From an uncultured archaeon (GTDB lineage Archaea; Aenigmatarchaeota; Aenigmatarchaeia; CG10238-14; SCSR01), in contig CAYJQI010000001.1 of assembly GCA_964372485.1 (NCBI GenBank), forward strand, positions 192,001-256,000: 64,000 bases of DNA, in the 5' to 3' direction. The notes beneath the pieces are model-generated. The model ran no database searches and had not been told where the DNA came from. It saw only the letters and a program-made list of their open reading frames with translations. The translations under genes were made by a program, and so were the position numbers. The stretch's first letter is position 1; the number at the start of each line of letters is the position of its first letter. Positions 38,253 to 54,231 of the stretch are shown piece after piece.

Positions 38253-38727
38253 ATTCGTGTATACTTTTGTAGTTTGTGTATGTAAAATAACCAACAAATA
38301 TGCCTATAACTCCACCTACCATGATGTCTTCCCATCTATGCAACCCCAGGAAAATTCTCGATAATGAAACAAGAATAGCCAATGAAATGAATGTAAAATC
38401 AAACTTTCTTTTATTGGAGTAAAGTAATGCTACAGTCATAGCAGCAAATATTATTGCCGCATGTCCACTAGGAAATGAGAAATCATTTAAACAATATTCT
38501 AAACCTAAACAAGGTCGTTGTATCTGGAAGAGATTTTTTGTTATGTTTACTAAACCCCAACTAATGACGATGGCTGGTAATACACCAAAAATAAACCAAT
38601 TGAAATAAAATTTTATTTTCCTGGGAAGTACCATGTTAAAAATTAACGATATAGTGACAGCCCCTATCCAAAAATATATGTCACCAAAAATTGATATCGT
38701 TTTCCAGAAAACTAGCCAACCTTCCAT
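38215..38727 (-). CDS. PAP2-family membrane phosphatase
   Basis: KNLFQIQRP..SFPSGHAA..SRIFLGLHRWEDIMVG (KxxxxxxRP / PSGH / SRxxxxxHxxxD). Confidence 0.8.
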   Translation of the reverse strand: MEGWLVFWKTISIFGDIYFWIGAVTISLIFNMVLPRKIKFYFNWFIFGVLPAIVISWGLVNITKNLFQIQRPCLGLEYCLNDFSFPSGHAAIIFAAMTVALLYSNKRKFDFTFISLAILVSLSRIFLGLHRWEDIMVGGVIGIFVGYFTYTNYKSIHEFIRKSRLEKILD

Positions 38728-38750
38728 AAGAATATTATTTGATATATATT

Positions 38751-39518: not shown

Positions 39519-39620
39519 ACTAAGTTGATAAAAAGTAAACTATTAGAATATATCACGGATCACTGGATTGAATGAGAATCATCGTGTGCCTAGTATTCTA
39601 ACCAAGTTAAACTACGACCC

Positions 39621-40367
39621 CTAGACTTTTCTTGCAAACGTTAACCATCCGGTATGCATCAATCCCATAGTCTTAGGTCTTGTAGTTCTCTCAGTTTGCC
39701 ATTCCCTTACTATATTCTCAACAGTTTTAATTTCCGAAAACTTTTCCTTCCTTAAAATTTTTATTATTTTCATTACATGCTCCATTGTTGGTGAATAAAC
39801 CACTATCCATCCACCAACATTCAATGGTTTTTGTGATTTTCTAATAACTTTTTCTGGATTTTGAAGGTCGAGAGTTATCAAATCAACATTTTTCTCATCT
39901 ATGCCTTTGTATATATCCTTATTTTTTAATTTCAGATTTGTCAATCCAGCTAATTTTATATTTTCTTTAGCATTTTCAACAAATCTCCGATCTTTTTCAT
40001 ATGTCACAACTTTACCATCTGATAAATAATGTGCAAGAAATATTGACAGATATCCAGTACCAGTTCCTGCATCTACAACTGAACTATCAGTGGATATACC
40101 GGTATATCCGATTATCATACTTGCATCTTTTGGTAAAATTACTTGTGCAGTTCTTTTCATCTTCGAAAATAAATCCAAAAGAGTAGGTTTAGCAATTACA
40201 AATTCTTTTCCTAAATGAGTTTTGATTTTACTCCCATAAGATTTCCCAATTATTTTTTTCAAATCTATTATTCCACTCTTCACGTTAAATTTTTCTTTAG
40301 AAGATTTTACAATATAAGTTTCATCCTTTCCCAACAATAGCACTGGATCATTTAGTTTTACTTTCAT
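39621..40367 (-). CDS. trmI: tRNA (adenine-N1)-methyltransferase TrmI/Gcd14 family
   Basis: VVDAGTGTGYLSIFLA (SAM motif I) and a Gcd14-type N-terminal beta domain (DPVLLLGKDETYIVK). The ATG at 40367 is preferred. Confidence 0.75.
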   Translation of the reverse strand: MKVKLNDPVLLLGKDETYIVKSSKEKFNVKSGIIDLKKIIGKSYGSKIKTHLGKEFVIAKPTLLDLFSKMKRTAQVILPKDASMIIGYTGISTDSSVVDAGTGTGYLSIFLAHYLSDGKVVTYEKDRRFVENAKENIKLAGLTNLKLKNKDIYKGIDEKNVDLITLDLQNPEKVIRKSQKPLNVGGWIVVYSPTMEHVMKIIKILRKEKFSEIKTVENIVREWQTERTTRPKTMGLMHTGWLTFARKV

Positions 40368-41310
40368 GACCTTTCTCCATTTCAAGTAAAGCTCGTATTC
40401 TTTTAAAAGTTAGGGGATGTGTTCTGAAAAATTCTCCAATTCTTACGAACATATTTCTTTTTTCCCATTCGATAGCTTTTCTTATTTCACTATCAGTAAC
40501 ATCTAAATCGGAATATTCATTTGAAAAATGAGAAATTTCTAAAGTTGATGTTATAGGATCTGCGATGTAAAATGCTCTCAACGGATCTTTAGAACTTTCC
40601 TTCGTGGTTCCCAGTCCATATGTTATTTTTGCCAATGCAGATGCAAGAAGTTTAGGTTTGTATATTCTACCTCCAAAATCATCTGCATAATATTCTCGGA
40701 GTCTTGATAATGCAAGGACAAGAAGATTTGATATAAAGTAAACTAAATACGCACCAATTCCAATCAATATTGCCATGCCAGCATTTTTCCTATCACTATC
40801 TCTTGAATACGTTAAACTAATCGCAAGATAATATGCGATAACAGGAACAACACTCGCCAAAGTCATAACAACCATATCACGGTGTTTTATGTGGCCAAGT
40901 TCATGTGCGATTACAGCTTTCACTTCTTCTTTTGTTAATGTATTTAATAATCCTTGAGTTACGACCAAATTCGCTGAACCTGGAGTTCTACCAAAAACAA
41001 ATGCATTTGGTGTTCCCATTCTTGCTAATGCAATCTTCTTAGGGAAAGGTACTTTGTTCTTTTTAGAAAATTCTTCTACTGCTTCCCAAATCCATGGATA
41101 TTCTTTTCTTTCAAGTGGTCTCATGTTAGTTGTCATCCAAATTATCCACGGTCCAACTAACCATTGAATAAATGTAAGCCCTAAAGCTATGATTAACATT
41201 GTAAGTGTGGAAAAATCCAAATAGAATCCTACTGCAGCAAGTAATCCAAATATTAATCCGAATAACAATATCATCGTCAAACTCATGCCCATTACTAATC
41301 CTAACGCCAT
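40348..41310 (-). CDS. htpX: M48-family membrane zinc protease HtpX
   Basis: HELGHIKHRD (HExxH) and four TM segments. Also MGTPNAFVFG and EYYAD. Confidence 0.85.
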   Translation of the reverse strand: MALGLVMGMSLTMILLFGLIFGLLAAVGFYLDFSTLTMLIIALGLTFIQWLVGPWIIWMTTNMRPLERKEYPWIWEAVEEFSKKNKVPFPKKIALARMGTPNAFVFGRTPGSANLVVTQGLLNTLTKEEVKAVIAHELGHIKHRDMVVMTLASVVPVIAYYLAISLTYSRDSDRKNAGMAILIGIGAYLVYFISNLLVLALSRLREYYADDFGGRIYKPKLLASALAKITYGLGTTKESSKDPLRAFYIADPITSTLEISHFSNEYSDLDVTDSEIRKAIEWEKRNMFVRIGEFFRTHPLTFKRIRALLEMEKGHESKTK

Positions 41311-41332
41311 GTTAACAACTCATTACTCATTT

Positions 41333-42217
41333 TTAAATTTTAATAACTCCTGATATTTTTTCTATCAGATCAGTTGGTAATACACTTTCTCCATATTCTT
41401 TGGCAGCGGTCTCTCCTGCTTTTCCATTAATGAAGGTTGCAGCCCATCCAGCAGTAAATGTATCTATACCTCTAGATAATAATGCACCAGCAATTCCTGT
41501 TAAAGTATCTCCAAATCCACCCTTGCTCATGAAAGGGGTTCCCGTATCGTTCAAAACAAGATCCTTACCATTTGATATTACATCAATGTTCCCTTTCAAT
41601 GCAATTGCTATAGGTGGATATAATGGACAGGTGTTATCTTTACCGCAATTTATTTTGTATGCATTCTTTCTGACGGCATTTATCCTATCTTTGATATTTT
41701 CTGAAACTTGGACTCCAGTTAATTCTAAAAATTCATTTGCGTGCGGTGTCATCAAGATTTTTTTCATCTTTAACTCGTCTCTAATCGCGCTAACTGCTCT
41801 TATACCATCTGCATCTAGCAACATTGGTATTTTTATCTGGTTTACAAGCATGTTGATTGCTTTTCGTGTTTCATCAATCCTCCATAATCCTGGTCCAATT
41901 ACAACTGCAGTAGCTCGCGAGCTTTCAATTAATGTTAAGATTTTACTTACATGACTTTCGTTCAAATAATCTCCTTTAAGGGGTTTTGTTATCAGTTCTG
42001 GTGCATAATTTGCTGCAATGTTCATTGCTCTTTGAGGTCCTGTCAGATATACAAGATCGCATCCTGCACGATATGCAGACATTCCAACAAAAACTGGAGA
42101 TCCTGTATGAATATGACTACCTGAAACCACTACCAGCTTGCCAAACTGGCCTTTATGTGACCATGGTTTTCTCTTCTTGTATATCCCTTTCAGGATAGTT
42201 TTTGACGTGTATCTCAT
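41333..42217 (-). CDS. nnrD: ADP-dependent NAD(P)H-hydrate dehydratase (YjeF C-terminal/carbohydrate-kinase family)
   Basis: SHKGQFGKLVVVSGS..YTGSPVFVGMSAYRAGCDLV..LLDADG..MTPHANEF..GGFGDTLTGIAGALL. Confidence 0.8.
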   Translation of the reverse strand: MRYTSKTILKGIYKKRKPWSHKGQFGKLVVVSGSHIHTGSPVFVGMSAYRAGCDLVYLTGPQRAMNIAANYAPELITKPLKGDYLNESHVSKILTLIESSRATAVVIGPGLWRIDETRKAINMLVNQIKIPMLLDADGIRAVSAIRDELKMKKILMTPHANEFLELTGVQVSENIKDRINAVRKNAYKINCGKDNTCPLYPPIAIALKGNIDVISNGKDLVLNDTGTPFMSKGGFGDTLTGIAGALLSRGIDTFTAGWAATFINGKAGETAAKEYGESVLPTDLIEKISGVIKI

Positions 42218-42251
42218 GATTTAATAAAGGTTATTTCTAAAATTAAACACT

Positions 42252-43283
42252 ATGCAAGCCTATCTAGTGAGAACTCTTATAGGGGTATTCGCCGTAGACG
42301 AGAAGAAACGTATAGTTTCATTCAAACCTTTTGCTCGAGATCCTATTGTTATAGCTGACAAAATGTCTGAGAGTGAACCAAAAGAGTATGCTCAATTAAA
42401 AAGTGAGTTGAAAGATTTTTCGTTTGTTCAGCCTTCTAAGGAAATCGAATCATTTGTAAATCAAAATTTATACAAGTATGCTATCGAATACAAACTAGTA
42501 AAAAATCAAATCGAATTCAACCAATTCCTAACAAAAGTTAATTCTGAATTGGCAAAACAAAAAATAAAACAATCCACCGGCAGAGATAACATCATTATTC
42601 ACGTAAATAATGCTATTGAGGAATTGGACAAGTCAATTAATATTTCCATGGAAAGAATTCGAGAGTGGTATTCGTTACATTTTCCAGAAATGGATAGAAT
42701 GATAGACAATCATGAAAATTATGTTAAACTTATTGAGAAATTTGGCAATAGGAAAAATTTTGATGACAAAGTATTGAATCAATTCAAAGAAAGAAGTTCC
42801 GGAATTGATTTTACAGATGAAGATATTGAATATGTGAAAACATTTGCAGCTAGTATAACTAAAATGTACGAACTACGTGAATCACTTTCAAAATATCTTA
42901 GTAATTTGTTGAGAGAGATTGCACCTAACTTTTCTGCTTTGGCAGGAGATGTTATTGCATCAAAACTTATATCCAAGTCAGGAGGACTGGAAAGATTATC
43001 GAGAATGCCATCATCCACTATACAATTACTAGGATCTGAAAAGGCTCTATTTAGATTTTTAAAATCTCGGGGGCGATCAAAGAGTCCAAAGTTTGGTTTA
43101 ATTTACAATCATCCATTAATTCAAAATTCACCTGCGCATAAACAAGGAAAACTTGCAAGATTGCTTGCATCTAAATTATCAATTGCAGCTAGAATCGATT
43201 ATTTTTCTAAGGAATATAAAGCTGATCAAATGAAAAAGGAATTGGAAACTAAATCAAGAGAAATTCTTTCCGCAAAGGAATAA
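42252..43283 (+). CDS. nop5: C/D box sRNP core protein Nop5 (Nop56/58)
   Basis: REWYSLHFPE..APNFSALAGDVIASKLISKSGGLERLSRMPSSTIQLLGSEKALFR..PKFGLIYNHPLI. Confidence 0.9.
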   Translation: MQAYLVRTLIGVFAVDEKKRIVSFKPFARDPIVIADKMSESEPKEYAQLKSELKDFSFVQPSKEIESFVNQNLYKYAIEYKLVKNQIEFNQFLTKVNSELAKQKIKQSTGRDNIIIHVNNAIEELDKSINISMERIREWYSLHFPEMDRMIDNHENYVKLIEKFGNRKNFDDKVLNQFKERSSGIDFTDEDIEYVKTFAASITKMYELRESLSKYLSNLLREIAPNFSALAGDVIASKLISKSGGLERLSRMPSSTIQLLGSEKALFRFLKSRGRSKSPKFGLIYNHPLIQNSPAHKQGKLARLLASKLSIAARIDYFSKEYKADQMKKELETKSREILSAKE

Positions 43284-43284
43284 T

Positions 43285-43953
43285 ATGCCAATTCAAAAGA
43301 CAAAGTTTGAGGGAGTCTTCAAACTAAATGGAAAATTCTGTACAAAAAATCTAACTCCAGGTCAGAAGGCATATTCTGAGGAACTAGTAAAGGAAAAAAA
43401 TATTGAATATAGAATCTGGGATTTTTGGAGAAGTAAACCTGCAGCTGCATTCAAGAATGGATTGAGACAATTCCCTCTAACAAAAAATATGAACATACTT
43501 TATCTTGGAATAGCGAATGGTACAACTGCATCTCATTTTTCTGATATAATTGAAAAGGAGGGTCTGATATATGGGGTGGAAATAAGCGAAAGACCCTTCA
43601 GAGAGTTATTTCCTATTGCAGAAAAGAGAGGAAATATAGTTCCTATCCTTGCAAATGCACGTAAACCAGAAGATTATGAGAATATTGTTTTAGGAAAAGT
43701 AGATTTAGTATATCAAGATGTTGCAAGTGACGATCAAGTAGAGATTCTAGTTAGAAATTCTAAGAAATTCCTACAAAAAAATGGATTGGCAATGATAGCC
43801 ATCAAGTCACAGTCGATAGATGTCACAAAATCACCACATCAGGTTTATGTAGAGTGCTTGAAGGAATTGGAAAAACATTTCACGATTCTAGACAAGATAG
43901 AATTAGACCCATATGAGAAATTTCATATGTTTGTTGTAATGAAACTACGTTAA
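43285..43953 (+). CDS. flpA: Fibrillarin-like rRNA/tRNA 2'-O-methyltransferase
   Basis: YRIWDFWRSKPAAA..ILYLGIANGTTASHFSDI..IYGVEIS.R..NIVPILANARKPEDY..VDLVYQDVA. Starts 1 nt after nop5. Confidence 0.9.
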   Translation: MPIQKTKFEGVFKLNGKFCTKNLTPGQKAYSEELVKEKNIEYRIWDFWRSKPAAAFKNGLRQFPLTKNMNILYLGIANGTTASHFSDIIEKEGLIYGVEISERPFRELFPIAEKRGNIVPILANARKPEDYENIVLGKVDLVYQDVASDDQVEILVRNSKKFLQKNGLAMIAIKSQSIDVTKSPHQVYVECLKELEKHFTILDKIELDPYEKFHMFVVMKLR

Positions 43954-44020
43954 TAGCCCCTCTTAACTTTCTTTAATTTTGCAGCAATCAGTCTAATCCA
44001 GGTCTTTGTCTTCATTTGTA

Positions 44021-44155
44021 TCACCGGCCCCCAACTTTAGGAATGTGTAGCCATTCGATTGTAGGTCTTTTCGCGTTTGTTAACACAGATCCGCATTCTC
44101 CACACGAGAATTTATCCTCGTTGAACATTAGATCACATTCTGTACACATTCTCAT
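44021..44155 (-). CDS. Mini zinc-ribbon protein, 44 aa (below the ORF-track cutoff)
   Basis: Manual translation gives MRMCTECDLMFNEDKFSCGECGSVLTNAKRPTIEWLHIPKVGGR (CxxC-x10-CxxC). Starts 4 nt after the stop of the upstream mini zinc-ribbon gene. Confidence 0.45.
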   Translation of the reverse strand: MRMCTECDLMFNEDKFSCGECGSVLTNAKRPTIEWLHIPKVGGR

Positions 44156-44159
44156 TTTT

Positions 44160-44297
44160 TCACCTGAAGCAATTTACACACGCCACGTACCCTTTCTTTT
44201 CTATTATGCTCGCTAAAGTTGTCTCGCCGTTGCATGCTGGACACATTACTGCATTTTTTGGGAATTTTTCTATCATAAGCATGGGTTTTATATTCAT
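44160..44297 (-). CDS. Mini zinc-ribbon protein, 45 aa, paralogue of 45000..45158
   Basis: From the internal Met: MNIKPMLMIEKFPKNAVMCPACNGETTLASIIEKKGYVACVNCFR (CxxC-x17-CxxC). The longer track ORF (to 44390) would overlap the divergent lrp start. Confidence 0.5.
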   Translation of the reverse strand: MNIKPMLMIEKFPKNAVMCPACNGETTLASIIEKKGYVACVNCFR

Positions 44298-44359
44298 TTT
44301 TCTCTGAAAAACAGAAAGCAAAGGACATTTAAATATATTCCGCTCTAATAAATGTATAT

Positions 44360-44884
44360 ATGTCGAAAGAAAATCTAAAGTATAATACAATTGTCCATAA
44401 AGGTGACGTAAAATCTAAATCAAACTCTGAACAAACGTCTATCGATGAAATTGATACAAAAATTCTGAAAGTTTTGAACTGGAATGCAAGACTATCTTAT
44501 CGTGAGATTGCACGTCAAACAAAATTATCAACTGGAACAGTGATATCCCGATTGAAAAAGCTACAAAAATCAGGTGTCATAGTTGGGTACTGTGTACAAA
44601 TCGATTCTAAGAAACTTGGATACACCTTAGGTGCAATAATAGAGGTAATTGCCGCAAAAAGTATGTTCCTAGAAGCATCTCGGAAGATCTCGTCTTATCA
44701 CAATGTATCTGGAGTTTATGCAGTTTCAGGTGATATAGATGCAATTGTTATTGCCAAGTTCAAAGATTCTGATCATTTGAACGATTTTCTGAGAGAATTG
44801 AACAAAGATCCTGACGTTATACGAACCGGAACTCATATTGTGCTAAAGGAGATAAAAGAAGAGCCAAGATTTATTTTAGATTAG
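44360..44884 (+). CDS. Lrp/AsnC-family transcriptional regulator
   Basis: IDEIDTKILKVLNWNARLSYREIARQTKLSTGTVISRLKKLQKSGVIVGY (HTH) plus a C-terminal RAM/ACT-like domain (GDIDAIVIAKFKDSDHLNDFL). Confidence 0.85.
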   Translation: MSKENLKYNTIVHKGDVKSKSNSEQTSIDEIDTKILKVLNWNARLSYREIARQTKLSTGTVISRLKKLQKSGVIVGYCVQIDSKKLGYTLGAIIEVIAAKSMFLEASRKISSYHNVSGVYAVSGDIDAIVIAKFKDSDHLNDFLRELNKDPDVIRTGTHIVLKEIKEEPRFILD

Positions 44885-44999
44885 AGATAATTGCGAATTT
44901 TTCAGATAAAATGGAGAAAGAGAGAAGTCGGAGAACTTTTGTTTGATCGGAATCCTCCAAGGGGTTAGTTCTCCAACTTCGGTTGATCGGCCAAAAGGG

Positions 45000-45158
45000 C
45001 TATGAACATTTTACACAGCGTATATTTCCACCTTGCTCGATAATTTCACTAATATTTACTTCTCTAGTGCATGACGGACATTCAAAAGCCACCTTAGGTC
45101 CTGATGGTTCTACCTCGTATGACCTTACTTGCATTGAGGGTAATTTTTTGAATTCCAT
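45000..45158 (-). CDS. Mini zinc-ribbon protein, 52 aa (below the ORF-track cutoff)
   Basis: Manual translation gives MEFKKLPSMQVRSYEVEPSGPKVAFECPSCTREVNISEIIEQGGNIRCVKCS. From the first Cys it aligns position-for-position with 44160..44297 (CP.C..E....IIE..G...CV.C). Confidence 0.5.
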   Translation of the reverse strand: MEFKKLPSMQVRSYEVEPSGPKVAFECPSCTREVNISEIIEQGGNIRCVKCS

Positions 45159-45341
45159 TTTTATCTAATGAGGAATTAGAAAACATCTTTATAAGGAACT
45201 TTTATAATGAAATTTGTAGTATTCATCGTATCTAGTGGGAAACCGTAAAACATTTATATATGTTTTTATAAGAAATTTAATACTATTATAGAAATATTTA
45301 TAATATCTGTAGCTATTTTATAATTATTTTGAAGTGATTGT

Positions 45342-46286
45342 ATGCAAGCAACATTGATAGAGAATAATGGAAAAGGAAGAATTGCTTATGATTCACTTAT
45401 TATTAACGATCCGAAATCATTTTCGACATTGAATAGTAAATTAGCATTAAAAATTGTTAAAACCCTCGCCGAATCACCAGCATCTGCTATAGATATTTCA
45501 AGAAAATTGAAAATACATGAACAAAAAATTTATTATCATATCAGAAGATTGGAGAAGGCAGGAATAATTTATACAATTTCTAGTGAACGAAGGCACGGAA
45601 TGATTGCTAAAATTTACAGCGTCGTTTCACCTGTTATTGTCGCAAAATTACATGATAAAGGTGTTCAGTTTGATGAGGGATTGTCTTTAAATGCATCACA
45701 GGAAACAATCAAATTTTTCGATCCGTTTATTCAGAATGGTTTATTGAATGCAAAGGTAATAATAGGATCTCCAAATCCACATGGTCCTTTTTCAGCAACA
45801 GCAAGACATGATACATCTTTATTTGAATTGGGTGTATTGTTTGGTAAGTTGTTGAGTGAAAGCGATGGATTGAATTTCTGTTTGGACACGACAGTTTCAG
45901 ATAGTGAATTGAAACACAATAATATTATCTTAATAGGTAATTCAAAGGTCAATTCAATTACACATAAAGTTAATCCACATCTACCAATTTATTTTGACGA
46001 AGCTAGGGATTTTCAAATCACATCAAAATTAACTGGTGAATCTTACAACTATGATTATGATGCAGTGATTATAAAAACACACAATCCGTTTAACGAAGAT
46101 AAAAAAATGTTGATTTTGGCAGGAAAACGAAGTGTCGGATTTATGTCGGCATTAATAGCAATCAAAAATCATATGCAAGAAATTTTACAAGGAAATTTAA
46201 AAAATAAAGATTTAATCGCAAGAGTAGTTACCGGTTTGGATAAAAATAGTGATGGAAAAATAGATGCTGTTAAATTTGGTGAATGA
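45342..46286 (+). CDS. ArsR-like wHTH protein with a C-terminal domain of ~220 aa and unknown function
   Basis: LNSKLALKIVKTLAESPASAIDISRKLKIHEQKIYYHIRRLEKAGIIY (wHTH). The C-terminal part (IIGSPNPHGPFSATARHD..) was not recognised. Confidence 0.6.
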   Translation: MQATLIENNGKGRIAYDSLIINDPKSFSTLNSKLALKIVKTLAESPASAIDISRKLKIHEQKIYYHIRRLEKAGIIYTISSERRHGMIAKIYSVVSPVIVAKLHDKGVQFDEGLSLNASQETIKFFDPFIQNGLLNAKVIIGSPNPHGPFSATARHDTSLFELGVLFGKLLSESDGLNFCLDTTVSDSELKHNNIILIGNSKVNSITHKVNPHLPIYFDEARDFQITSKLTGESYNYDYDAVIIKTHNPFNEDKKMLILAGKRSVGFMSALIAIKNHMQEILQGNLKNKDLIARVVTGLDKNSDGKIDAVKFGE

Positions 46287-46287
46287 T

Positions 46288-46446
46288 ATGGCAAATATTA
46301 AAGCAATAGTTTTTGATGCTGACCTAAAATTTAATGGTGCGCTTATGGGTATCACCGAAAGGGATAAATACATTAAATGTGGTGTTTCTCCTAGTGCAGT
46401 GGTACCATCTGGCAGAATTACCCGCACTTTACGAGTGATTAGATGA
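46288..46446 (+). CDS. Micro-ORF (52 aa) translationally coupled on both sides within the PRTase operon
   Basis: MANIKAIVFDADLKFNGALMGITERDKYIKCGVSPSAVVPSGRITRTLRVIR. The ATG lies 2 nt after the upstream stop, and its stop overlaps the PRTase start (ATGA). Confidence 0.4.
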   Translation: MANIKAIVFDADLKFNGALMGITERDKYIKCGVSPSAVVPSGRITRTLRVIR

Positions 46447-46904
46447 CTGAACAAAAAAATGGAATGCAATATGATACAAGAAGAATTGAAACATTCGGTA
46501 GAAAGATAGGACCTTTGGTTAGAGAATACATTGATCATAATGGTAATAAGGGATCTGTTATGGGTATTCCAACAGCAGGTCGACTTTTTGCAGTCGAACT
46601 TTATAAAAATTTATTGGCTCCTAATTCAGATCAACCCTTTATTGATGTTACTTACTGGGAATTGGATAGAACCGATATTCAAGGTAGTTTGAAAAGAAAT
46701 TCCGCACAAGTAAGAGGAAGACACTTAATAGTAGTAGATGATGATATTCATACTAAGGCAACTTATGAGGAAATACAAAATGAGTTAGATAGATTAAAGG
46801 GCTATTATGATATACCTTCTATTAATTGGGCTGTTGAATTCGATGGTCCTGGTATTGCAAAATGGGCATGTAATAGAATGAATAATGGGAAATCTCGTGG
46901 TTGA
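46443..46904 (+). CDS. Type-I phosphoribosyltransferase-fold protein (divergent PRPP loop)
   Basis: VMGIPTAGRLFAVELY..GRHLIVVDDDIHTKATYEEI shows the PRTase acidic-hydrophobic strand followed by a modified D-T-G-x-T loop (HTKAT). 153 aa, similar in size to XGPRT. Confidence 0.6.
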   Translation: MTEQKNGMQYDTRRIETFGRKIGPLVREYIDHNGNKGSVMGIPTAGRLFAVELYKNLLAPNSDQPFIDVTYWELDRTDIQGSLKRNSAQVRGRHLIVVDDDIHTKATYEEIQNELDRLKGYYDIPSINWAVEFDGPGIAKWACNRMNNGKSRG

Positions 46905-47366
46905 ATGAAAGCGTATATAGCCGCACCCTATACAAGCAAATCTTTAATGCCCAATAATTCAAGTGCCGTTCACGGAAAAATAACTGATACATCTTATATG
47001 AATTTTTTAGATATGATAGAGTCTATTGTAAAAGAACGTGGACTTGAAACATTCTTACCACATAGGGATTTGCATAATTGGGGAACTGCTAATGTTAATG
47101 AACAAGAAATTGGTAAAAAGTCTATAGAAGAATTGAAATCCTCTGATGTAATAATTGCTTATCCGGAACAAAGTGTGGGAGTTAACATTGAATTGGGTTG
47201 GGCATCCGCATTCAAGAAGAAAATTTTGATTTTATTGAATGAAAATAGCAGAGTAAGTGTTATGCATTCTGGATTGAACGGTGTTACTGATTCTAAAATA
47301 ATAAAATTCAGAGATATAACCGATCTGAGAACAAAATTGAGAGCGGCTCTTTCTGGCTTTGTATAA
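46905..47366 (+). CDS. Nucleoside 2-deoxyribosyltransferase-like (NDT/DrHyd/Rcl superfamily) protein
   Basis: MKAYIAAPYTS (YxAGP-like N-terminus), SDVIIAYPEQ..GVNIELGWASAFKKKILILL (catalytic-Glu block E-x-G-x-A). The start abuts the PRTase stop (TGAATG). Confidence 0.6.
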   Translation: MKAYIAAPYTSKSLMPNNSSAVHGKITDTSYMNFLDMIESIVKERGLETFLPHRDLHNWGTANVNEQEIGKKSIEELKSSDVIIAYPEQSVGVNIELGWASAFKKKILILLNENSRVSVMHSGLNGVTDSKIIKFRDITDLRTKLRAALSGFV

Positions 47367-47414
47367 GCTTTTAAATCTGGGAAACTATCTTTTCGGAAGC
47401 AGGACCTGTTAATT

Positions 47415-48029
47415 ATGGTGGAAAATACTCCAAGAATTGGAAGGGGTATACGATCTACACACGAAGTCGATATCCAAATAGAAGTCGACCTAGATGTAAT
47501 AGGAGACCCAAAATACGACTTCACAATGGATGGTGGAAATATAGAAGCACCTCATGCCGTCGCTCTATTTAATCATTTTCTAAGTCAAATATCCCGACAT
47601 GGTTTGCAGCATATTAGTGGACATGCGACCTCTAAAGACGGTTTGACACATCACTTATACGAAGATACTGCAATAGCTCTAGGAGAGGCTTACAAAATGG
47701 CAGTAGGTAATAAAAAAGGTATTAGAAGAGTATCTAATGTGGGATGGCCTTTTGAAGGAAATTATGTAGAAGTGGCTGTGGATTTTAGTGCAAGATCTCA
47801 CTCTGATTTCGATAGTGAAATAAAGGATCCGAAATTATTACAAATGGCTAAACATGTTTTACTCTCGCTTTCTAATGGAGGGGGGTTGGATATACGTTCA
47901 AGAACATATGGTTGGGATGATCATCATCAAGTTGAAGGTTTAGGTAAATCATTGGGAAGAGCTATATATGATGCTACAAGAAGATTGGAAGGATATTCTG
48001 CAGTTCCAAGTACAAAGGGAATTTTGTAA
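47415..48029 (+). CDS. hisB: Imidazoleglycerol-phosphate dehydratase family protein (divergent, isolated from other his genes)
   Basis: RSTHEVDIQIEVDLD..LFNHFLSQ..LTHHLYEDTAIALGEA..WDDHHQVEGLGKSLGRA match the IGPD His/Glu metal motifs. Some blocks are atypical (PFEG instead of P-M-D-E). Confidence 0.7.
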   Translation: MVENTPRIGRGIRSTHEVDIQIEVDLDVIGDPKYDFTMDGGNIEAPHAVALFNHFLSQISRHGLQHISGHATSKDGLTHHLYEDTAIALGEAYKMAVGNKKGIRRVSNVGWPFEGNYVEVAVDFSARSHSDFDSEIKDPKLLQMAKHVLLSLSNGGGLDIRSRTYGWDDHHQVEGLGKSLGRAIYDATRRLEGYSAVPSTKGIL

Positions 48030-48088
48030 ATAATAAAATTAAAATAAACATTTCATATCCAAATTATGGTAGTCGTACTACCGTCTTT

Positions 48089-48202
48089 CTATACTGGAAC
48101 TATATATCCCATTATTTTATTTCCATCAATATAGTTAACCCGCACTTTACGCTTTCCTCTATCGATTAATAGAGTTCTACTTAGTGTCGCTACTTCATTC
48201 AT
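48089..48202 (-). CDS. Possible 37-aa micro-ORF with a strong SD, coupled to the upstream zinc-ribbon gene
   Basis: GGAGGG lies 8 nt upstream of the ATG, immediately after the TAA of 48218..48418. Product: MNEVATLSRTLLIDRGKRKVRVNYIDGNKIMGYIVPV. Confidence 0.3.
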   Translation of the reverse strand: MNEVATLSRTLLIDRGKRKVRVNYIDGNKIMGYIVPV

Positions 48203-48217
48203 TTTACATCACCCTCC

Positions 48218-48418
48218 TTATTTTGAAAAGTGTTTAATCAACGCTCTATTGTTATAGTACGTGTTAAATTGTTGTAATCTAGTCTGATGCTGTGGTATCG
48301 CAGTCGTATCAACGAAACTTCCAGAGCATCCTCTGCAAAATATTCTTCTTTCACCAAAACCATCTACAAATTTTACCATTCTGAATGAACTGCATCTTCC
48401 GCATCTCATTTCTGTCAC
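48218..48418 (-). CDS. Small zinc-ribbon protein (66 aa)
   Basis: MTEMRCGRCSSF..x..IFCRGCSGSF (CxxC-x18-CxxC). Confidence 0.5.
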   Translation of the reverse strand: MTEMRCGRCSSFRMVKFVDGFGERRIFCRGCSGSFVDTTAIPQHQTRLQQFNTYYNNRALIKHFSK

Positions 48419-48606
48419 CAGAATAGAATTAGTGAATTGGATATACCCGTCTTTGGTAGGGGTTCATTTCCCACATCTTTAACAAAGAAGGTAATTTAAG
48501 CTTTTTTTAGAACATATAACCCTTCTAGTAAGCTAGAAACCCGTAAAATCTTTTATTTCATCTCTAATTCAATTGAAATAGCTAAAATTGTTAGCTACAA
48601 TTTAGT

Positions 48607-48819
48607 TTAAGGTGGTGTTGGTGTAGGAGGAGTTGGAACAGGAACTATTACAGTTGGTCCTGGTGGTCCAGGTGGACCTTCCTGTCCTTGGGGGCCTGCA
48701 GGTCCTCTTCTGGGTCCTATCCACCCCATATAAAATGCTGCAAAGATAAACAACACAATAACAAGTATCGCAATTATAGCTACAATCGCAGCTGAATTTT
48801 GCCCTTTCCTTCTTTTCAT
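48607..48819 (-). CDS. Small single-pass membrane protein with a short collagen-like (G-X-Y)6 tract and a Pro/Thr tail
   Basis: TM segment AAIVAIIAILVIVLFIFAAFYMGWI, then GPA-GPQ-GQE-GPP-GPP-GPT, then VIVPVPTPPTPTPP. Confidence 0.55.
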   Translation of the reverse strand: MKRRKGQNSAAIVAIIAILVIVLFIFAAFYMGWIGPRRGPAGPQGQEGPPGPPGPTVIVPVPTPPTPTPP

Positions 48820-48968
48820 ATATTCACCTTTGTATAGAACATCCTTAGGTAACTTGACGTTGTAAATAAAGATATAATTACATATGTTGTTAAATTATTC
48901 ACAACAATTTTTATACCAACTAATCGTTAAAAATTGTCTCTATTTTTAGAATAATGTTGTCAAAGGAT

Positions 48969-50078
48969 TCAATTTTCTATATTTTTCAAATTCGTCATAA
49001 ATTTGGTTAAATTCTTGGCTGGAAACCTACCGCCAGCAGCTACAGGGTGCCCTCCTCCCTCGGAATCTGGTATTCCTTTAACAGCCGTTGCAGCAAGTTT
49101 ATTCAAATCTACAATCGATACCTTTCCTCTTCTATAACTAACATCAATAAATTTCCCAGATTTTTGGTATATCACAAGAACTTCTGTTGTTAATTTTTTC
49201 GCCATAACTGTTGCAAGTGGAGATTTCATATTGAATTTCGATTTCACTTCATATATCACAAGTTTCTTAATTTTCTTTTTCTTCTTTTCAAAATCTTTTA
49301 CAAGTTTATTGAATTCTTTTTCTGATTTTCCAAACCATTCCATCAAAGTTTTTGCATTTCCTTTCCCCCTCAGAACATCTTGGTAATTATTTGCCTTCAT
49401 TAAAATATCACGAGCAAAAATAGATCCATTAACCCCCTTTACAACTCTTGCACTGTCAAATATTTTTGATAATTTCCCAAGCAATGAATTATCAAATAAA
49501 AACTCATCAATATTTTCATTATCATCAACGAGTTCTTTATTTTTTGTTTTAATATTTTCAAAAAGATCAACACAATTCTTCAATCCCATGTCCGACAATG
49601 TTCCAACACCAGCAATCCACAGAATATCATCGGACTTTAAAAGTTCACTGTAAATTCTATAACAAAGATATGTTGCAGGAATGTAGATTTGTTCGTCGAA
49701 AACTCTTGGATTAACATACAAAACTTTTACATATCCCTTCGGTACATGATGATCAATTATTATTACTTGAGAAATATTTCGTAATTCTGTTAAAATTTTC
49801 ACACTAATTTCTGATATATCCACAATGACAACATAATCAGGTTTTATTTTTTTTACAGTTTCCATTGCATCTTCTGTCACTGCAGAATTTGATGATGATG
49901 CAATTAATTTTGATTCAATCTTGTGAACATTTTTTACTAATCTGTAAATTATAGCTGCAGAACAAATACTATCATTGTCATGACCGTGAATAATTGCAAC
50001 TTTACCTTTACCCATTCGTTTAAAGAATTCAACAGCCGGTGTGATCGTCTCTTCGATTATACTTTCCATAACCAACAA
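48969..50078 (-). CDS. DHH/DHHA1 phosphoesterase (RecJ/NrnA-like)
   Basis: AIIHGHDNDSICSAA (motif I/II), VVIVDIS, IIIDHHVP (DHH), GGGHPVAAGG (DHHA1). Confidence 0.8.
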   Translation of the reverse strand: MLVMESIIEETITPAVEFFKRMGKGKVAIIHGHDNDSICSAAIIYRLVKNVHKIESKLIASSSNSAVTEDAMETVKKIKPDYVVIVDISEISVKILTELRNISQVIIIDHHVPKGYVKVLYVNPRVFDEQIYIPATYLCYRIYSELLKSDDILWIAGVGTLSDMGLKNCVDLFENIKTKNKELVDDNENIDEFLFDNSLLGKLSKIFDSARVVKGVNGSIFARDILMKANNYQDVLRGKGNAKTLMEWFGKSEKEFNKLVKDFEKKKKKIKKLVIYEVKSKFNMKSPLATVMAKKLTTEVLVIYQKSGKFIDVSYRRGKVSIVDLNKLAATAVKGIPDSEGGGHPVAAGGRFPAKNLTKFMTNLKNIEN

Positions 50079-50167
50079 TGCATTTGAAGATAGAAATATT
50101 TTCTTCGTTAGGTGTTATCGAGAAGGATCGAGTAAACTTTAAATAGTTATTATTGTACTACTAGTAC

Positions 50168-50449
50168 ATGACAACACAATCCAATGCGACACACTTGAAA
50201 CGTGTTGAATTTAAGCATAGAGGTGGCTATTGGGAAATCTATGATGGTTTTTGGAATAGCTGTTTACGGAGCCCAACTAAGGTTGTAGCTGCAAGACTTC
50301 GACAATATGGCTTTCCTAATGTAGCAGAACAGGTTTCTTCTGGCAGATATTCTGAGGGAGCAGAATTTCATGTAGATATTTCATTCGACAAAAGTTTTAA
50401 TCCACGAGAATTAAACTATTTGACTTGGTTGTCAAACACGAAATTCTAA
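50168..50449 (+). CDS. Hypothetical protein
   Basis: 93-aa ORF in a clean intergenic slot. No recognisable motif. Confidence 0.35.
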   Translation: MTTQSNATHLKRVEFKHRGGYWEIYDGFWNSCLRSPTKVVAARLRQYGFPNVAEQVSSGRYSEGAEFHVDISFDKSFNPRELNYLTWLSNTKF

Positions 50450-50460
50450 TTGTATCTTTT

Positions 50461-50871
50461 TCAAGATTTGAAAGGGCTAAAATTCTGCTTTAATAAACTT
50501 TGTATTGGTAAGAACAACGGTTGAGGTAAATTATTCCATTCAAACCATTCCCAACCTTCAGATTTCTCTGGTTCTTTGAGTTGAACTTCACCAGAATCAT
50601 ATTCTGATGTCATATAAATTGTAATGTAATGTTTCCTTTCTTTTTCAAATACGTCATTTGTCAATGCCCCGTATCGTATATTTTTAATTTGAATGCCAGC
50701 TTCTTCAAAAACTTCTCTCCTCGCACATTGTTCAAAGGTTTCACCATATTCTAAATGTCCACCTGGAAATCCCCATGTACCTTCTCCATGTGTGTTTCTT
50801 CTCTTGTAAAGAAGAACTTTATCTTCCTTTCGTACAATTACACCCATTCCAACTTTGGGTCGGTCATTCAT
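50461..50871 (-). CDS. NUDIX hydrolase
   Basis: Nudix box GGHLEYGETFEQCARREVFEEAGI. Confidence 0.9.
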   Translation of the reverse strand: MNDRPKVGMGVIVRKEDKVLLYKRRNTHGEGTWGFPGGHLEYGETFEQCARREVFEEAGIQIKNIRYGALTNDVFEKERKHYITIYMTSEYDSGEVQLKEPEKSEGWEWFEWNNLPQPLFLPIQSLLKQNFSPFKS

Positions 50872-50902
50872 AGTAAACAGATAACTAGAAGATTATTTAT
50901 GC

Positions 50903-51196
50903 TTAACCAAACAAGCTCGACAATCCCGCACTTGCAGCTTCAGCAGCCTTTTCAGTATCTTCTTCTTTCTTTTCTTCCTTCTTTTCAGTTGTTGCGGCAG
51001 CAGCTGGTGCAGCGGCCATAGAAACAGCTTCTTTCAAAGCTTCATCAATATTAACACCCTGTAAAGCAGCAACAAGAGCCTTTATTTTTGCATCATCAAC
51101 ATTAGAACCAGCACTGGATAAAATCTTTTTGACATTGTCTTCATTGACAGGTTGTCCACTTTCATGCAGCATCAAAGCCGCGTATACTTCTTGCAT
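50903..51196 (-). CDS. rpl12: Ribosomal stalk protein P1 (aL12)
   Basis: [52 protein letters not shown] (conserved stalk tail). Confidence 0.9.
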
Positions 51197-51198
51197 TT

Positions 51199-51939
51199 TT
51201 ATCCACTTACTTTCTTTTCTATCGCTTTTCCTCTTTGATAAGCTTTCATTAATAGATATTTAACGTTTTCTTTTGTAGGATAACTTATAGATACAGAAAG
51301 ATTTAAAGCTTGTTGGAACGCTTCTTTCAATTTTTGTGGATATATTTCCACCAATTCCAATGTGTTCTTGTCATATAACATTCCGTCAAAAACTACTGCA
51401 ATATTGAGTTTGATCTCTGCGACTTGGAGTTTTAATTTTCTTAGAACACCAGCAACATCCTTTGATACAGGTTGACCTTTCTTGAGAATAGTTGAAGTCT
51501 TTTTAACAGCAATCTTTCCGCCTTCAACACCAGCAATAATTCCAACTTTTTGCAATTCACTTATCGCAGGTCCAGGTAATAATTCAGTCGGTCCTGGATT
51601 TACAATAACATCCTCATCAACAACATATCCATCCTTTGCATAAGTCTTGAATCTCAATTTGTTGATTTCTTTGTAAAGTGTAAAAGGATCAAGTTCAGTG
51701 AATATTAATCCTGGTTGAGTTGGCATATGCCCTATCAAATCTTTTCCAGTTTCTTTCATTGCAATTTCCACAAGTGATTTCTTACTAATCTTCACCAAAA
51801 TTTTTCCAGCTAGAGATTTTTTAATTAATTGCATTTGTTTCGTCGGCATTTTCATCATGTCAGCTATACAAATCACTTTATACTTTCCGAACAATTCTTT
51901 CAATTCAACTAATTCATTTTGTTTCTTTTCTGTCGGCAT
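51199..51939 (-). CDS. rpl10: Ribosomal stalk protein P0 (uL10), unusually short and without the acidic stalk tail
   Basis: The N-terminal uL10 domain ([25 protein letters not shown]..) is present. The protein ends ..[15 protein letters not shown] at 246 aa with no EE-rich/..LFG tail. Located between L1 and P1 as in the conserved operon. Confidence 0.8.
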
Positions 51940-52556
51940 TATTTCATCTCCACTTTGACAGGTTCACTCATTGTAAGTTTTAACAAAACTTTTCCAATAT
52001 TTTGTCTTCCATTCGGAAGTCTTGTTTCCAAAAATTTCAATATAGCTTCAACATTTTCAGCAACTTTTCTATTATCCATATCTTCTCGCCCAACAAAACA
52101 TTGAATCACAGGCGAATTTTTGACAGAAATTCTTACACTTGTCTTATAATTTTGTACAAGTTTTTTTACATCACCTGATATAAGTTTAGGCATCTTTCCT
52201 CTAGGTGCTAGTAATTGACCTAAAGATTTTCCTATTGTTGGCATCAGAATAGCTTCTGATAAGAAGAAATCAGTATTCCTGGCTAATTTTTTTGCATCTC
52301 TTTTGTTCGCAGCAACTCTTTGTATGTCTGCAGTTGTGAAAACATCACAATCCAATCCTTTCAAATTATCTGAGAAAACAACAATTTTCGCATCCTTCCC
52401 TCGTCCATGCGGTAAAATTACATCTTCCGAGAATTTACTTTCAGCTTTTTTTAAATCAAGACTCTTTAACGCAACTATTAAATCAATACTTTGAGTAAAA
52501 TTTTTCTTTTCCTTCGATTTCAATTCCGACAATGCTTTTTCTATCTGTTCTAACAT
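51939..52556 (-). CDS. rpl1: Ribosomal protein uL1
   Basis: FTQSIDLIVALK..LPHGRGKD.KIVVF..LAPRGKMP. GGAGGG lies 4 nt upstream of the ATG. Confidence 0.9.
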   Translation of the reverse strand: MLEQIEKALSELKSKEKKNFTQSIDLIVALKSLDLKKAESKFSEDVILPHGRGKDAKIVVFSDNLKGLDCDVFTTADIQRVAANKRDAKKLARNTDFFLSEAILMPTIGKSLGQLLAPRGKMPKLISGDVKKLVQNYKTSVRISVKNSPVIQCFVGREDMDNRKVAENVEAILKFLETRLPNGRQNIGKVLLKLTMSEPVKVEMK

Positions 52557-52560
52557 ATAA

Positions 52561-52580
52561 CCCTCCTACCGAAGTAGTCT
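52561..52580 (-). promoter_or_regulatory. SD-adjacent UUCG-tetraloop hairpin in the L1-P0-P1 leader (candidate L1 autoregulatory element)
   Basis: The minus-strand RNA reads GACUACUUCGGUAGGAGGGUUAUAUG. The CUAC/GUAG stem closes a UUCG loop and abuts the GGAGGG SD. Confidence 0.35.
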
Positions 52581-52693
52581 ACGGGACAATCCAAGTACGA
52601 TTTTAATATATTTAAACACATTGGATTTTTCTGTTTTTGTGGGTTTTCTAACTTTTATAAGACTTAAATTCCTATAGAAATAAGACTGATAGA

Positions 52694-53338
52694 ATGGCAG
52701 GTAAGAAAGTAAAGGAAAATGAGAAGCCTAAAGAGAAGGAAGAAGTAAAGGAGAAAAAAGAAGAGAAGAAAAGGCCAGAAGCAAGACGAGATATACCAAC
52801 TTTGATTATTCGTGTTGCTGGTACTGATTTAGATGGAGAAAAATCTGTAATGCGGGCGATTAAAAAAATAAAAGGAATCAGTGTATCAATGAGCAGAGCA
52901 ATTTGCCGTGTTGCAAAAATAAATCCGTCAACAAAACTGGGTTCATTGAACGAAACAGAACTTGCAAATCTTGAAAATGTGATAAAAAATCCAACCAATT
53001 TTAACATTCCAATATTCATGGTGAATAGAAGAAGAGATATGGAAACGGGAAACGATGTTCATTTGACAAGCTCAGATCTCGACATTGCAAAAAGATTTGA
53101 TGTACAAAGATATGTTAATTTGAAAACCTACAAAGGATGGAGACACATGTTAGGTCAGCCTGTTCGAGGACAAGAAACTAAAAGTTCATTTAGAGTAACA
53201 GGTATGGCTGTAGGTGTGATGAAGAAAGCTGCAGTTCCAGCTAAAGCAGGCGCTGCCGCAGCTCCAGCCGCAGGTGCACCAGCTGCTGCTCCCGCTGCAC
53301 CAGCAAAAGAAGCAGGCAAAGCTCCAGCAAAGAAGTGA
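52694..53338 (+). CDS. rps13: Ribosomal protein uS13 with Lys/Glu-rich N-terminal and Ala/Pro-rich C-terminal extensions
   Basis: The core IIRVAGTDLDGEKSVMRAIKKIKGIS..YKGWRHMLGQPVRGQ.TK is flanked by MAGKKVKENEKPKEKEEVKEKKEEKKRPEA and ..AVPAKAGAAAAPAAGAPAAAPAAPAKEAGKAPAKK. Confidence 0.85.
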   Translation: MAGKKVKENEKPKEKEEVKEKKEEKKRPEARRDIPTLIIRVAGTDLDGEKSVMRAIKKIKGISVSMSRAICRVAKINPSTKLGSLNETELANLENVIKNPTNFNIPIFMVNRRRDMETGNDVHLTSSDLDIAKRFDVQRYVNLKTYKGWRHMLGQPVRGQETKSSFRVTGMAVGVMKKAAVPAKAGAAAAPAAGAPAAAPAAPAKEAGKAPAKK

Positions 53339-53342
53339 TTGA

Positions 53343-53843
53343 ATGAAACGACAACGAAAAAAATACGCAACACCATATCGACCATGGGATAAAGAAAGAA
53401 TCGAAGTTGAAAAGAAGTTGATCTCTGATTTTGGATTGAAAAGTAAACGTGAACTTTGGAAAACAGAAGCCTTACTAAGAAAATACAGAAGACTTGCACG
53501 AGAATTAATCGGAAAACAAGACAAGGATAAAGAAAAAGCATTGATAGAAAAGTTATCAAAGCTCGGTGTGCTCACAAAAGATGCATCATTGGATAATGTT
53601 CTTGGACTTTCAATAGAGGATTTCCTTAATAGACGTTTGCAAACAGTGCTTGCAAAGAAAAATCTCGTCAATACAGTTGGACAAGCACGACAATTCATTA
53701 CTCATGGTCATGTTATGATTGAAGATAGAAAAGTTACTTATCCAAGTTACATGGTTCCTCTTGATGATGAGGCAAAATTAGTTGTAAGACTTACTCCAGT
53801 TAAGAAAATATCAGGTGAAGTAAATGGTGGAACAGCAAACTAA
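53343..53843 (+). CDS. rps4: Ribosomal protein uS4
   Basis: [51 protein letters not shown] (S4 RNA-binding domain). Confidence 0.9.
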
Positions 53844-54231
53844 AAAAGAAGAGAAATGGGGAGTTGCGCACATATACAGCACTGCGAATAACACTATAAT
53901 TCATGTTACTGATATTACGGGAAGTGAAACTTTCTCTAGATATTCTGGTGGAATGATGACTGATAAGGATAGAGAACAAGGAATGCCTTTCCCAGCAATG
54001 TTAGCTGCACGAAAAGCCGCTGAGCTAGCTAAAGAAAAGGGATTGACAGGTATACATATCCGTGTTAGAGCCAGAGGAAGTCAATATTCCAAGTCTCCAG
54101 GTATGGGAGCACAACCAGCTATCAGAGCTTTAGCCCGTGCAGGATTAAGAATTGGAACTATAGAAGATACGACCCCGATAACACATGGCGAGTTGCGCAA
54201 GAAAGGCGGAAGATTAGGAAGACGAGTTTAA
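53824..54231 (+). CDS. rps11: Ribosomal protein uS11
   Basis: [34 protein letters not shown]......[30 protein letters not shown]. Confidence 0.9.

Follow-up and report, generated by a model that had tools for sequence, protein, structure and literature searches.

Imidazoleglycerol-phosphate dehydratase (IGPD) is a herbicide target that is not known to have more than one function. Within the nucleoside deoxyribosyltransferase (NDT) superfamily, roles have been assigned to the residues of MilB, with Glu103 in catalysis, Ser97 and Gly99 in phosphate binding, Asp78 in ribose binding, an aromatic residue in stacking, and Glu62 in the reading of cytosine (PMC4081090). In GfcR, the phosphoribosyltransferase (PRT) domain is devoid of transferase activity and uses its 5'-phosphate loop to sense sugar phosphates (PMC10838023). 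Here, we analyzed a stretch of 64,000 nucleotides from an uncultured archaeon of the Aenigmatarchaeota (the window; positions 192,001 to 256,000 of contig CAYJQI010000001.1, assembly GCA_964372485.1), which is part of a 0.81-Mb (812-kb) genome in seven contigs that is 89.7% complete. At positions 45342-48029, this window carries an NDT-like gene between a PRT-like gene and an IGPD homologue. Our best reading is that this island belongs to a single group of Aenigmatarchaeota (DPANN) living in groundwater, and that it is neither a defense system nor a part of the histidine pathway. We favor, tentatively and at slightly less than even confidence, a lineage-specific variable scavenging island composed of an active nucleoside 5'-monophosphate (NMP) N-glycosidase, a PRT-fold partner that binds a phosphoribosyl ligand, and an accessory, intact IGPD acting on external imidazoleglycerol phosphate or a near analogue.

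The island contains five open reading frames (ORFs), all intact and on the plus strand, whose successive junctions are a 1-nt gap, an ATGA overlap, a 0-nt junction, and a 48-nt spacer. The five genes are real and are packed as a single transcription-unit-like block behind a conserved winged helix-turn-helix (wHTH) gene, as follows:

45342..46286, plus strand: wHTH-X, 314 amino acids (Pfam HTH_20/HTH_5, AlphaFold2 model, and Foldseek)
46288..46446, plus strand: small ORF, 52 amino acids, with its ATG 1 nt past the wHTH stop codon (position and shared motif)
46443..46904, plus strand: PRT-like protein with an HGPRT/PyrR-like fold, 153 amino acids (sub-cut-off Pfam match, and family profile against structures)
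46905..47366, plus strand: NDT-like N-glycosidase of the MilB/BlsM/DNPH1 type, 153 amino acids (Pfam Nuc_deoxyrib_tr, and solved relatives)
47415..48029, plus strand: IGPD homologue, 204 amino acids (Pfam IGPD, solved IGPDs, and residue check)

A preliminary description of this DNA had reported the tight packing of the first four genes and the IGPD 48 nt further on, and the ORF list and a reading of the sequence agreed with it at every junction. It had also called a wHTH protein with an unplaced C-terminal domain, a 52-amino acid ORF within the operon, a PRTase fold with an altered phosphoribosyl pyrophosphate (PRPP) loop, a member of the NDT/DrHyd superfamily, and an orphan, divergent IGPD with no neighboring his genes. 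These calls held: the first in ArsR-type profile matches and Foldseek, the second in the ORF found at 46288-46446, the third in the family profile and the lost loop glycine, the fourth in the presence of the AAPYTS and NIELGWA motifs, and the last in a genome-wide search and the HisB score.

The NDT-like protein matched Pfam Nuc_deoxyrib_tr (PF05014) with 36.1 bits, above the cut-off of 28.8, and this placed it within the NDT superfamily. Its closest solved relatives were BlsM (E 4.6e-12), MilB (1.1e-9), and DNPH1 (2e-4); it did not group with the classical NDTs 1f8x, 9gn4, and 4hx9, which were matched only at E 0.19-0.27. Like MilB, BlsM, and DNPH1, it is a protein of about 150 amino acids, although the identity to them is only about 30%. 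In the alignment, the catalytic Glu103 of MilB corresponded to Glu96, within a G-x-x-x-E-L-G-W-A block, the phosphate-binding Ser97 and Gly99 to Ser90 and Gly92, the ribose-binding Asp78 to Asp81, and the aromatic Phe22 to Tyr9, within the N-terminal A-A-P-Y stretch. Hence, the MilB-type catalytic, phosphate, and ribose residues are all present, and since they are kept, hydrolysis of an NMP to the free base and ribose-5-phosphate would be expected. The base-reading residues are different. Members specific for hydroxymethyl-CMP (hmCMP) have Glu62 plus Arg or Lys at position 23, whereas in the NDT-like protein His stands in the place of Glu62, the MilB residue that reads N3 and the amino group of cytosine, and Thr10 in that of the hydroxymethyl reader Arg23. 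With these changes at the cytosine-reading positions, a base other than cytosine is probable, and the sequence comparison suggests that the protein resembles an NMP glycosidase that is not to be classed as a CMP or hmCMP hydrolase. Moreover, unlike MilB and BlsM, it has neither a nucleoside-antibiotic cluster nor a ThyA/MilA-type hydroxymethylase as a neighbor. The subfamily comprised 46 proteins among 5.8 billion, and all source-named members were from Aenigmatarchaeota; in a profile search of genome contigs, nearly all the matches belonged to the same genus, and the remaining ones to unassigned archaeal metagenome-assembled genomes, plus one weak match in Chloroflexota. Distant relatives with 44% and 28% identity were observed in or beside pyruvate:ferredoxin oxidoreductase operons (L029/L030 6001-6447 and L024 6559-6960), and in L029 the gene lies between those of the delta and alpha subunits of this enzyme.

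The PRT-like protein scored 21.9 bits against Pfam Pribosyltran (PF00156), below the gathering cut-off of 26.3, and its best, weak NCBIfam matches were the archaeal PRK02277, similar to orotate phosphoribosyltransferase (OPRT), and GfcR. Only 19 relatives were found among 1.84 billion representative proteins, and the profile built from this family matched HGPRT and PyrR structures with E 3.5e-6. The loop of type I PRTases is defined by four hydrophobic and two acidic residues followed by x-x-T-G-x-T, and the consensus of the family is VDDAIxTGxTY. In the PRT-like protein, the loop LIVVDDDIHTKAT (VVDDDIHTKAT) keeps the acidic pair and both threonines and departs from the type I definition at the glycine, replaced by lysine; the glycine is also replaced in its two closest relatives, the three variants being T-K-A-T, T-R-Q-T, and T-R-D-T. 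The protein is thus like PurR, PyrR, GfcR, and the 6-oxopurine PRTases in the family-profile matches and in the retained acidic and threonine residues, and unlike them in having T-K-A-T for T-G-x-T and in falling below the Pfam cut-off. Several members of the family (P0083, P0091, P0093, P0094, and P0085) carry an N-terminal wHTH fused to the PRT domain, as PurR and GfcR do, and this parallel supports, by analogy, a regulatory role. In contrast to PurR and GfcR, the protein in the window stands alone as a PRT domain of 153 amino acids with no fused HTH, and the small ORF upstream has no significant wHTH similarity.

Next, the supply of PRPP was considered. In Pfam searches of the window genome, neither domain of PRPP synthetase (Prs) was found, nor was any PRTase above the cut-off. 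The only other PRT-like ORF, at C1:66024-66584, is OPRT-like, has a canonical VEDVITSGGS loop, reaches only 16 bits against PF00156, and contains very little lysine, with a K/(K+R) of 0.25. These data bear on the base exchange by a paired PRTase and NDT that the preliminary description had suggested. In an active salvage of this kind, the N-glycosidase would free bases and ribose-5-phosphate, and the PRT-like protein would transfer phosphoribosyl groups, either forward or in reverse (NMP + pyrophosphate -> base + PRPP), which would let a nucleotide auxotroph interconvert nucleotides even if it had no PRPP synthetase; the IGPD would be unrelated. Such a scheme agrees with a fold nearest to HGPRT and PyrR, with the DD pair and both threonines kept in the loop, with the PRT-fold gene found 5' of the NDT gene in most relatives, with a neighborhood rich in nucleotide hydrolases, and with the OPRT-like gene, whose canonical loop would need PRPP in a genome where no Prs was found. 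However, the loop position that is lysine here is a glycine both in the consensus of the family and in every classical type I PRTase, the Pfam score stays under the gathering cut-off, wHTH fusions such as those of the relatives are typical of regulators, and the partners are exchanged for unalignable families between close species, which would be odd for a housekeeping salvage enzyme. The fold assignments on which the suggestion was built stood, while simple exchange was weakened because the loop glycine is lost, relatives are fused to wHTH domains, and no PRPP synthetase was found; we regard it as unlikely. Neighborhood comparison, proposed in the preliminary description, showed that the linkage of PRT-fold and NDT genes recurs in relatives, and a grouping with characterized salvage enzymes, which would have pointed to ordinary salvage, was not seen for the PRT-like or the NDT-like protein, both members of very small families (19 and 46, respectively).

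For the scavenging island that we favor, the IGPD is the third component. It scored 95.1 bits against Pfam IGPD (PF00475; cut-off 27) and matched solved IGPDs over the full length with E 3e-21. All of the checked Mn-ligand and substrate positions (16/16) and both D/NxHHxxE metal motifs are kept, and it shares with HisB (EC 4.2.1.19) the HHxxE motifs, the Mn ligands, the phosphate-binding Arg/Lys/Gln/His, and the C-terminal PSTKG loop. Unlike HisB, it does not reach half of the NCBIfam HisB cut-offs (117.6 bits at best versus 269 for the equivalog), and it belongs to a separate, long-branched clade. The identity was at most about 36% to IGPDs outside the genus or clade, and 37-59% to the clade members that also keep the functional residues. 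In the tree, the divergent IGPDs (those of the window, G005, G009, L027, L032, and G179, a genome of another genus) were split from the canonical ones, which include the HisB of Aenigmatarchaeota, with support of 100/98, although attraction artifacts are possible because the branches are long. A distinct IGPD clade with intact-site members persisting in two genera argues for a retained catalytic function.

The IGPD is the sole match of its kind in the genome and, at variance with HisB, it adjoins nucleotide-enzyme genes and not his genes. In whole-genome Pfam searches, no HisA/F, HisD, HisG, or HisI was found, and 14/14 control genomes were positive each time; no close HisC or IMPase homologue was found in the window genome either. 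A complete or partial his pathway was therefore rejected for this genome, and within its 89.7% completeness the IGPD does not work alongside other his genes; the search for these genes, proposed in the preliminary description, uncovered no complete operon elsewhere that could explain a hisB. Canonical operons with the order hisG-C-B-F-A/IE-D-hisS are present in other Aenigmatarchaeota families, whereas in this genus there are only fragments, found in two members. In G005 (L034, C5 7911-11411), these are hisS, hisD, and a hisG-like gene (327 amino acids), and in G009 (L035, C5 4420-11275) a second HisRS-like gene, hisC, a 572-amino acid HGTP_anticodon and HisG fusion, and then a 280-amino acid protein, with no HisA/F or HisI in these fragments of G005 and G009. 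The one strong HisF/HisH pair, which belongs to the sister genome G002, was rejected as a sign of histidine synthesis, since it sits in a polysaccharide cluster. Beyond the genus, G179 (L049, C9 7139-8705) has an IGPD-like gene of the same clade with an intact site, placed 3' of an Lrp-like regulator and directly 5' of a BtpA-family gene (268 bits). In genus g89, from another Aenigmatarchaeota family (L050-L052), a 195-amino acid IGPD-like protein without the HHxxE metal ligands or the C-terminal STKG loop is conserved, and its gene neighbors encode an S-adenosylmethionine (SAM) methyltransferase, a HAD phosphatase, and two or three divergent proteins resembling PRPP synthetase. The tendency of IGPD-like genes to adjoin PRT-fold genes, and the retention of an intact IGPD across genus-level divergence in genomes that do not have the pathway, keep alive the idea of a functional link.

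The comparison with relatives showed a conserved frame with variable contents. An orthologue of the N-glycosidase was present in 9/10 genomes of the genus, eight of which share the order Nop56 - fibrillarin - Lrp - Zn-ribbon - wHTH-X - [slot] - Zn-ribbon - DHH - ... - P1 - P0 - L1, and identities across the genus were 50-78% for the flanking genes and 45-75% for the N-glycosidase. The genes between wHTH-X and the N-glycosidase belong to at least four mutually unalignable families. Family A1 is the type of the window, with small ORF plus PRT-like gene, and was also found in L016, L025, and L046. Another family had a weak Pfam PRT match, another showed, by sequence inspection, a PRT-like LDDWVGYTG motif, and A4, for which the AlphaFold2 model was poor (pLDDT 49.5), had HGPRTs as its top Foldseek matches, at E ~1e-2. 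Comparison of A1 with A4, A5, and A6 by hhalign gave nothing, against A7 the match was weak (probability 33%), and the A4, A5, and A6 profiles had no significant match in the PDB; hence, it is only partly supported that all the slot partners are PRT-like. The partner genes are nonetheless swapped between species, and wHTH-X is a conserved gene with a hot spot in the slot downstream of it.

The slot downstream of the N-glycosidase is variable too. It holds a single IGPD in the window, G005, G009, and L032, and one in convergent orientation in L027; a doubled IGPD of 440-449 amino acids in G002, G003, and G004 (L014, L017, and L015, respectively); and, in G001, G006, and G007, a gene of the IMPase family together with a hisC scoring up to the TIGR01141 cut-off. 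It is empty in L025 and L046. In the doubled proteins, the N-terminal half carries the HHxxE..K block, and the C-terminal half is without several ligands of the second metal motif. These sister islands occupy the syntenic slot found 3' of the wHTH gene in the window and share its N-glycosidase orthologue, and differ in that the window IGPD is of single length with a complete canonical site, and in that the window has an A1-type PRT-like gene and the small ORF where the sisters have genes for two larger unplaced proteins. At L048 4617-9592, two unplaced genes and then argH and argG follow wHTH-X, with no N-glycosidase on the contig stretch examined, and G008 is without the island, wHTH-X there abutting the Zn-ribbon gene. 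From the Zn-ribbon gene to P1, the neighborhood in the window and its relatives is one of nucleotide enzymes, with DHH/DHHA1, HD, HIT, Nudix, and an NDT paralogue. This second, conserved NDT paralogue next to DHH has Thr in place of the catalytic Glu (NITLG). A second variable slot was observed between DHH/DHHA1 and ribosomal protein P1, which in the window (50168-50871) holds a 93-amino acid ORF and a Nudix gene; in relatives (L014-L017, L022, L025, and L027), it holds mostly the NITLG paralogue, and HD and HIT genes in others.

For the scavenging island, we propose the following sequence of events. The NDT-like enzyme would hydrolyze a scavenged nucleoside 5'-monophosphate, whose base is probably not cytosine, into the free base and ribose-5-phosphate. 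The PRT-fold protein may bind a phosphoribosyl or sugar-phosphate ligand, such as ribose-5-phosphate, PRPP, or an NMP, and, by analogy, would act as a regulatory or non-canonical partner instead of a classical salvage PRTase. The wHTH gene would provide the promoter and perhaps regulation, and the IGPD, as an accessory gene with start signals that are probably its own, would dehydrate imidazoleglycerol phosphate, or a very close analogue, not made by the cell, e.g., derived from a host. Several observations weigh against this proposal. The IGPD adjoins the NDT gene in 6/10 genomes of the genus and in further metagenome contigs, so that its link may exceed that of an accessory gene; a true HisC stands in its place in three other genus genomes; and in another family, degenerate IGPD-like genes neighbor Prs-like PRT-fold genes. 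The catalytic Glu of the NDT-like enzyme has given way to Cys in L046 and to Asp in L021, L016 and L027 no longer have all the IGPD ligands, and, together with the loss of the PRPP-loop glycine, these signs of relaxed constraint could mean that parts are decaying. In addition, a regulatory role of the PRT-like protein is proposed only by analogy, and genes taken as absent may lie in the missing part of the genome, because it is 89.7% complete.

Gene decay is an alternative that we consider doubtful. According to it, the island would be an eroding remnant of a his-related and nucleotide cluster, in which the PRT-like gene, the small ORF, and the IGPD have no physiological role in this organism. 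Canonical his operons that end at hisS occur in other Aenigmatarchaeota, and members of the genus keep differing fragments (those of G005 and G009, and hisC plus IMPase in G001, G006, and G007). Several relatives have lost catalytic residues, the length of the small ORF falls across genomes from 75 through 52 and 42 to 38 amino acids, and G008 has no island. On the other hand, every ORF in the window is intact, and its IGPD has 16/16 functional residues in spite of only 37-59% identity to clade members that keep them as well. Very small genomes normally delete useless genes, and a clade of IGPDs present in two genera, and separate from canonical HisB, suggests long retention in such genomes.

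It is improbable, in our view, that the island encodes one new pathway, in which the PRT-fold protein or proteins, the NMP N-glycosidase, and the IGPD of the fast-evolving clade, replaced in sister genomes by HisC and an IMPase-family phosphatase, share an imidazole- or ribose-phosphate metabolite. This could take the form of an unusual way of making or consuming imidazoleglycerol phosphate, of the synthesis or breakdown of an imidazole nucleotide, or of the conversion of nucleotide or histidine-pathway intermediates derived from a host. The NDT gene repeatedly adjoins an IGPD (six genus genomes plus L027/L028 and L032) or a hisC of TIGR01141 level, a hisC-IGPD pair occurs on another contig, the neighborhood of IGPD-like, Prs-like, HAD, and methyltransferase genes in g89 is independent, the intact IGPD-like gene of G179 adjoins BtpA, and the N-glycosidase departs from cytosine readers at the positions that read the base. 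Nevertheless, a coherent set of steps was found in no single genome, and in that of the window the IGPD stands alone, with no aminotransferase, phosphatase, or dehydrogenase to accompany it. The orientation of the IGPD varies, being convergent in L027, islands occur without the IGPD (L025 and L046) or without the NDT gene (L048), and the IGPD-like proteins of g89 have no Mn ligands.

Amino acid composition set some of these genes apart. The PRT-like, small-ORF, IGPD, HisC, and IMPase genes of the window and sister loci encode Lys-poor, Arg-rich products, with K/(K+R) of 0.17-0.49, as compared with 0.65-0.93 for wHTH, the N-glycosidase, and the flanking genes, and the Lys-poor genes are also lower in third-position GC content (GC3) in the sister genomes of higher GC. 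As for a foreign origin, the PRT-like and IGPD proteins are poor in lysine but rank only near the 10th percentile genome-wide. NDT and PRT folds occur in retron and other defense effectors, and the preliminary description had noted that both recur in conflict systems centered on nucleotides. We searched PADLOC-DB 2.0 with the island enzymes and four partner proteins of sister islands, and only a generic similarity of the wHTH protein to Csa3/CasR and a marginal match of the NDT-like protein to RdrA (E 0.0029, 14 bits) were obtained, with nothing for the PRT-like protein, the IGPD, or the four partners; a known defense system was rejected on this basis. A conflict or toxin-antitoxin-like module, with the N-glycosidase as a nucleotide- or NAD-depleting effector restrained by fast-evolving PRT-like partners under wHTH control, would account for the translationally coupled small genes, the hypervariable, non-homologous, compositionally distinct partners upstream of a conserved enzyme, and the folds shared with defense effectors, but it is very unlikely, given the lack of significant PADLOC matches for enzymes or partners, of a sensor NTPase, cyclase, reverse transcriptase, or nuclease, and of a tRNA gene in 38000-54000, the synteny of the NDT gene across the genus with a divergence like that of its neighbors, the metabolic nature of its nearest characterized relatives (MilB, BlsM, and DNPH1), and the occurrence of distant relatives inside a pyruvate:ferredoxin oxidoreductase operon.

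The first gene of the block, wHTH-X, matched Pfam HTH_20 (32.7 bits) and HTH_5 (32.5 bits), both above the cut-offs, and its profile and fold are those of ArsR/SmtB-type winged-helix proteins. In the AlphaFold2 model (pLDDT 89.5), residues ~25-100 matched PH1932 (1uly, E 1.2e-6) and CzrA (1.7e-4) in Foldseek, and the conserved C-terminal alpha/beta domain of about 200 amino acids, folded with confidence, gave only weak BcsB-like matches. The family had 194 homologues, every source-named one from Aenigmatarchaeota, and many with faint precomputed S_layer_C matches. A paralogue with 42% identity is found in the same genome at C1:15360-16277, next to glmS. Since wHTH-X is conserved throughout the lineage, has a paralogue elsewhere, and also occurs without the island, it cannot be regarded as a regulator dedicated to the island.

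The small ORF, listed also in a 60-amino acid form that starts at 46264, is probably a real or remnant gene. Counterparts of 38-75 amino acids are located 5' of every A1-type PRT-like gene (L016, L025, and L046), and the motif G-I-T-x-x-D-K-Y/F is common to all of them. No significant similarity to Pfam, HAD, or wHTH was found. Two origins suggested by sequence inspection had no statistical support and were set aside: a HAD phosphatase remnant, and a remnant of the wHTH fused in PRT-like relatives, against whose wHTH profile the small ORF gave ~0 bits.

Finally, the signals around the genes were located:

45159..45341, plus strand: probable promoter region of the operon, AT-rich and intergenic, with several TTTATA/TATAAT-like stretches upstream of the wHTH gene
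47367..47414, plus strand: 48-nt spacer containing CTTTTAAATC, putative separate promoter of the IGPD
48066..48084, plus strand: terminator-like hairpin 3' of the IGPD, the sole terminator-like site in 44800-48500
46420..46433, plus strand: left copy of the 14-nt direct repeat ACCCGCACTTTACG, 10 nt 5' of the PRT-like start
48138..48151, plus strand: right copy of ACCCGCACTTTACG, 109 nt 3' of the IGPD stop

The region 45159-45341 is a putative archaeal promoter, the scans having covered bacterial-type consensus sequences only. Because the 48-nt spacer 5' of the IGPD gene holds the stretch TTTTAAAT, this gene could have its own promoter, and the stretch may be an archaeal TATA-like box. The hairpin is weak evidence of termination, since terminator-like sites were no more common than in shuffled sequences. 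The repeat ACCCGCACTTTACG has exactly two copies in the 812-kb genome, which bracket the PRT-like, NDT-like, and IGPD genes, and no counterpart in the sister loci; it is not significant alone because about 9% of simulated 3.7-kb regions hold a repeat of this length. A mobile element was not supported, since 38000-54000 contains no tRNA gene and the repeat is not significant by itself.

How DPANN archaea, which live off hosts, process scavenged nucleotides and amino acid precursors is largely unknown. If the enzymes of the island are active, they would represent a new scavenging route or a new role of IGPD outside histidine synthesis; if they are inactive, the locus would clearly show a pathway caught in the course of eroding within a reduced genome.

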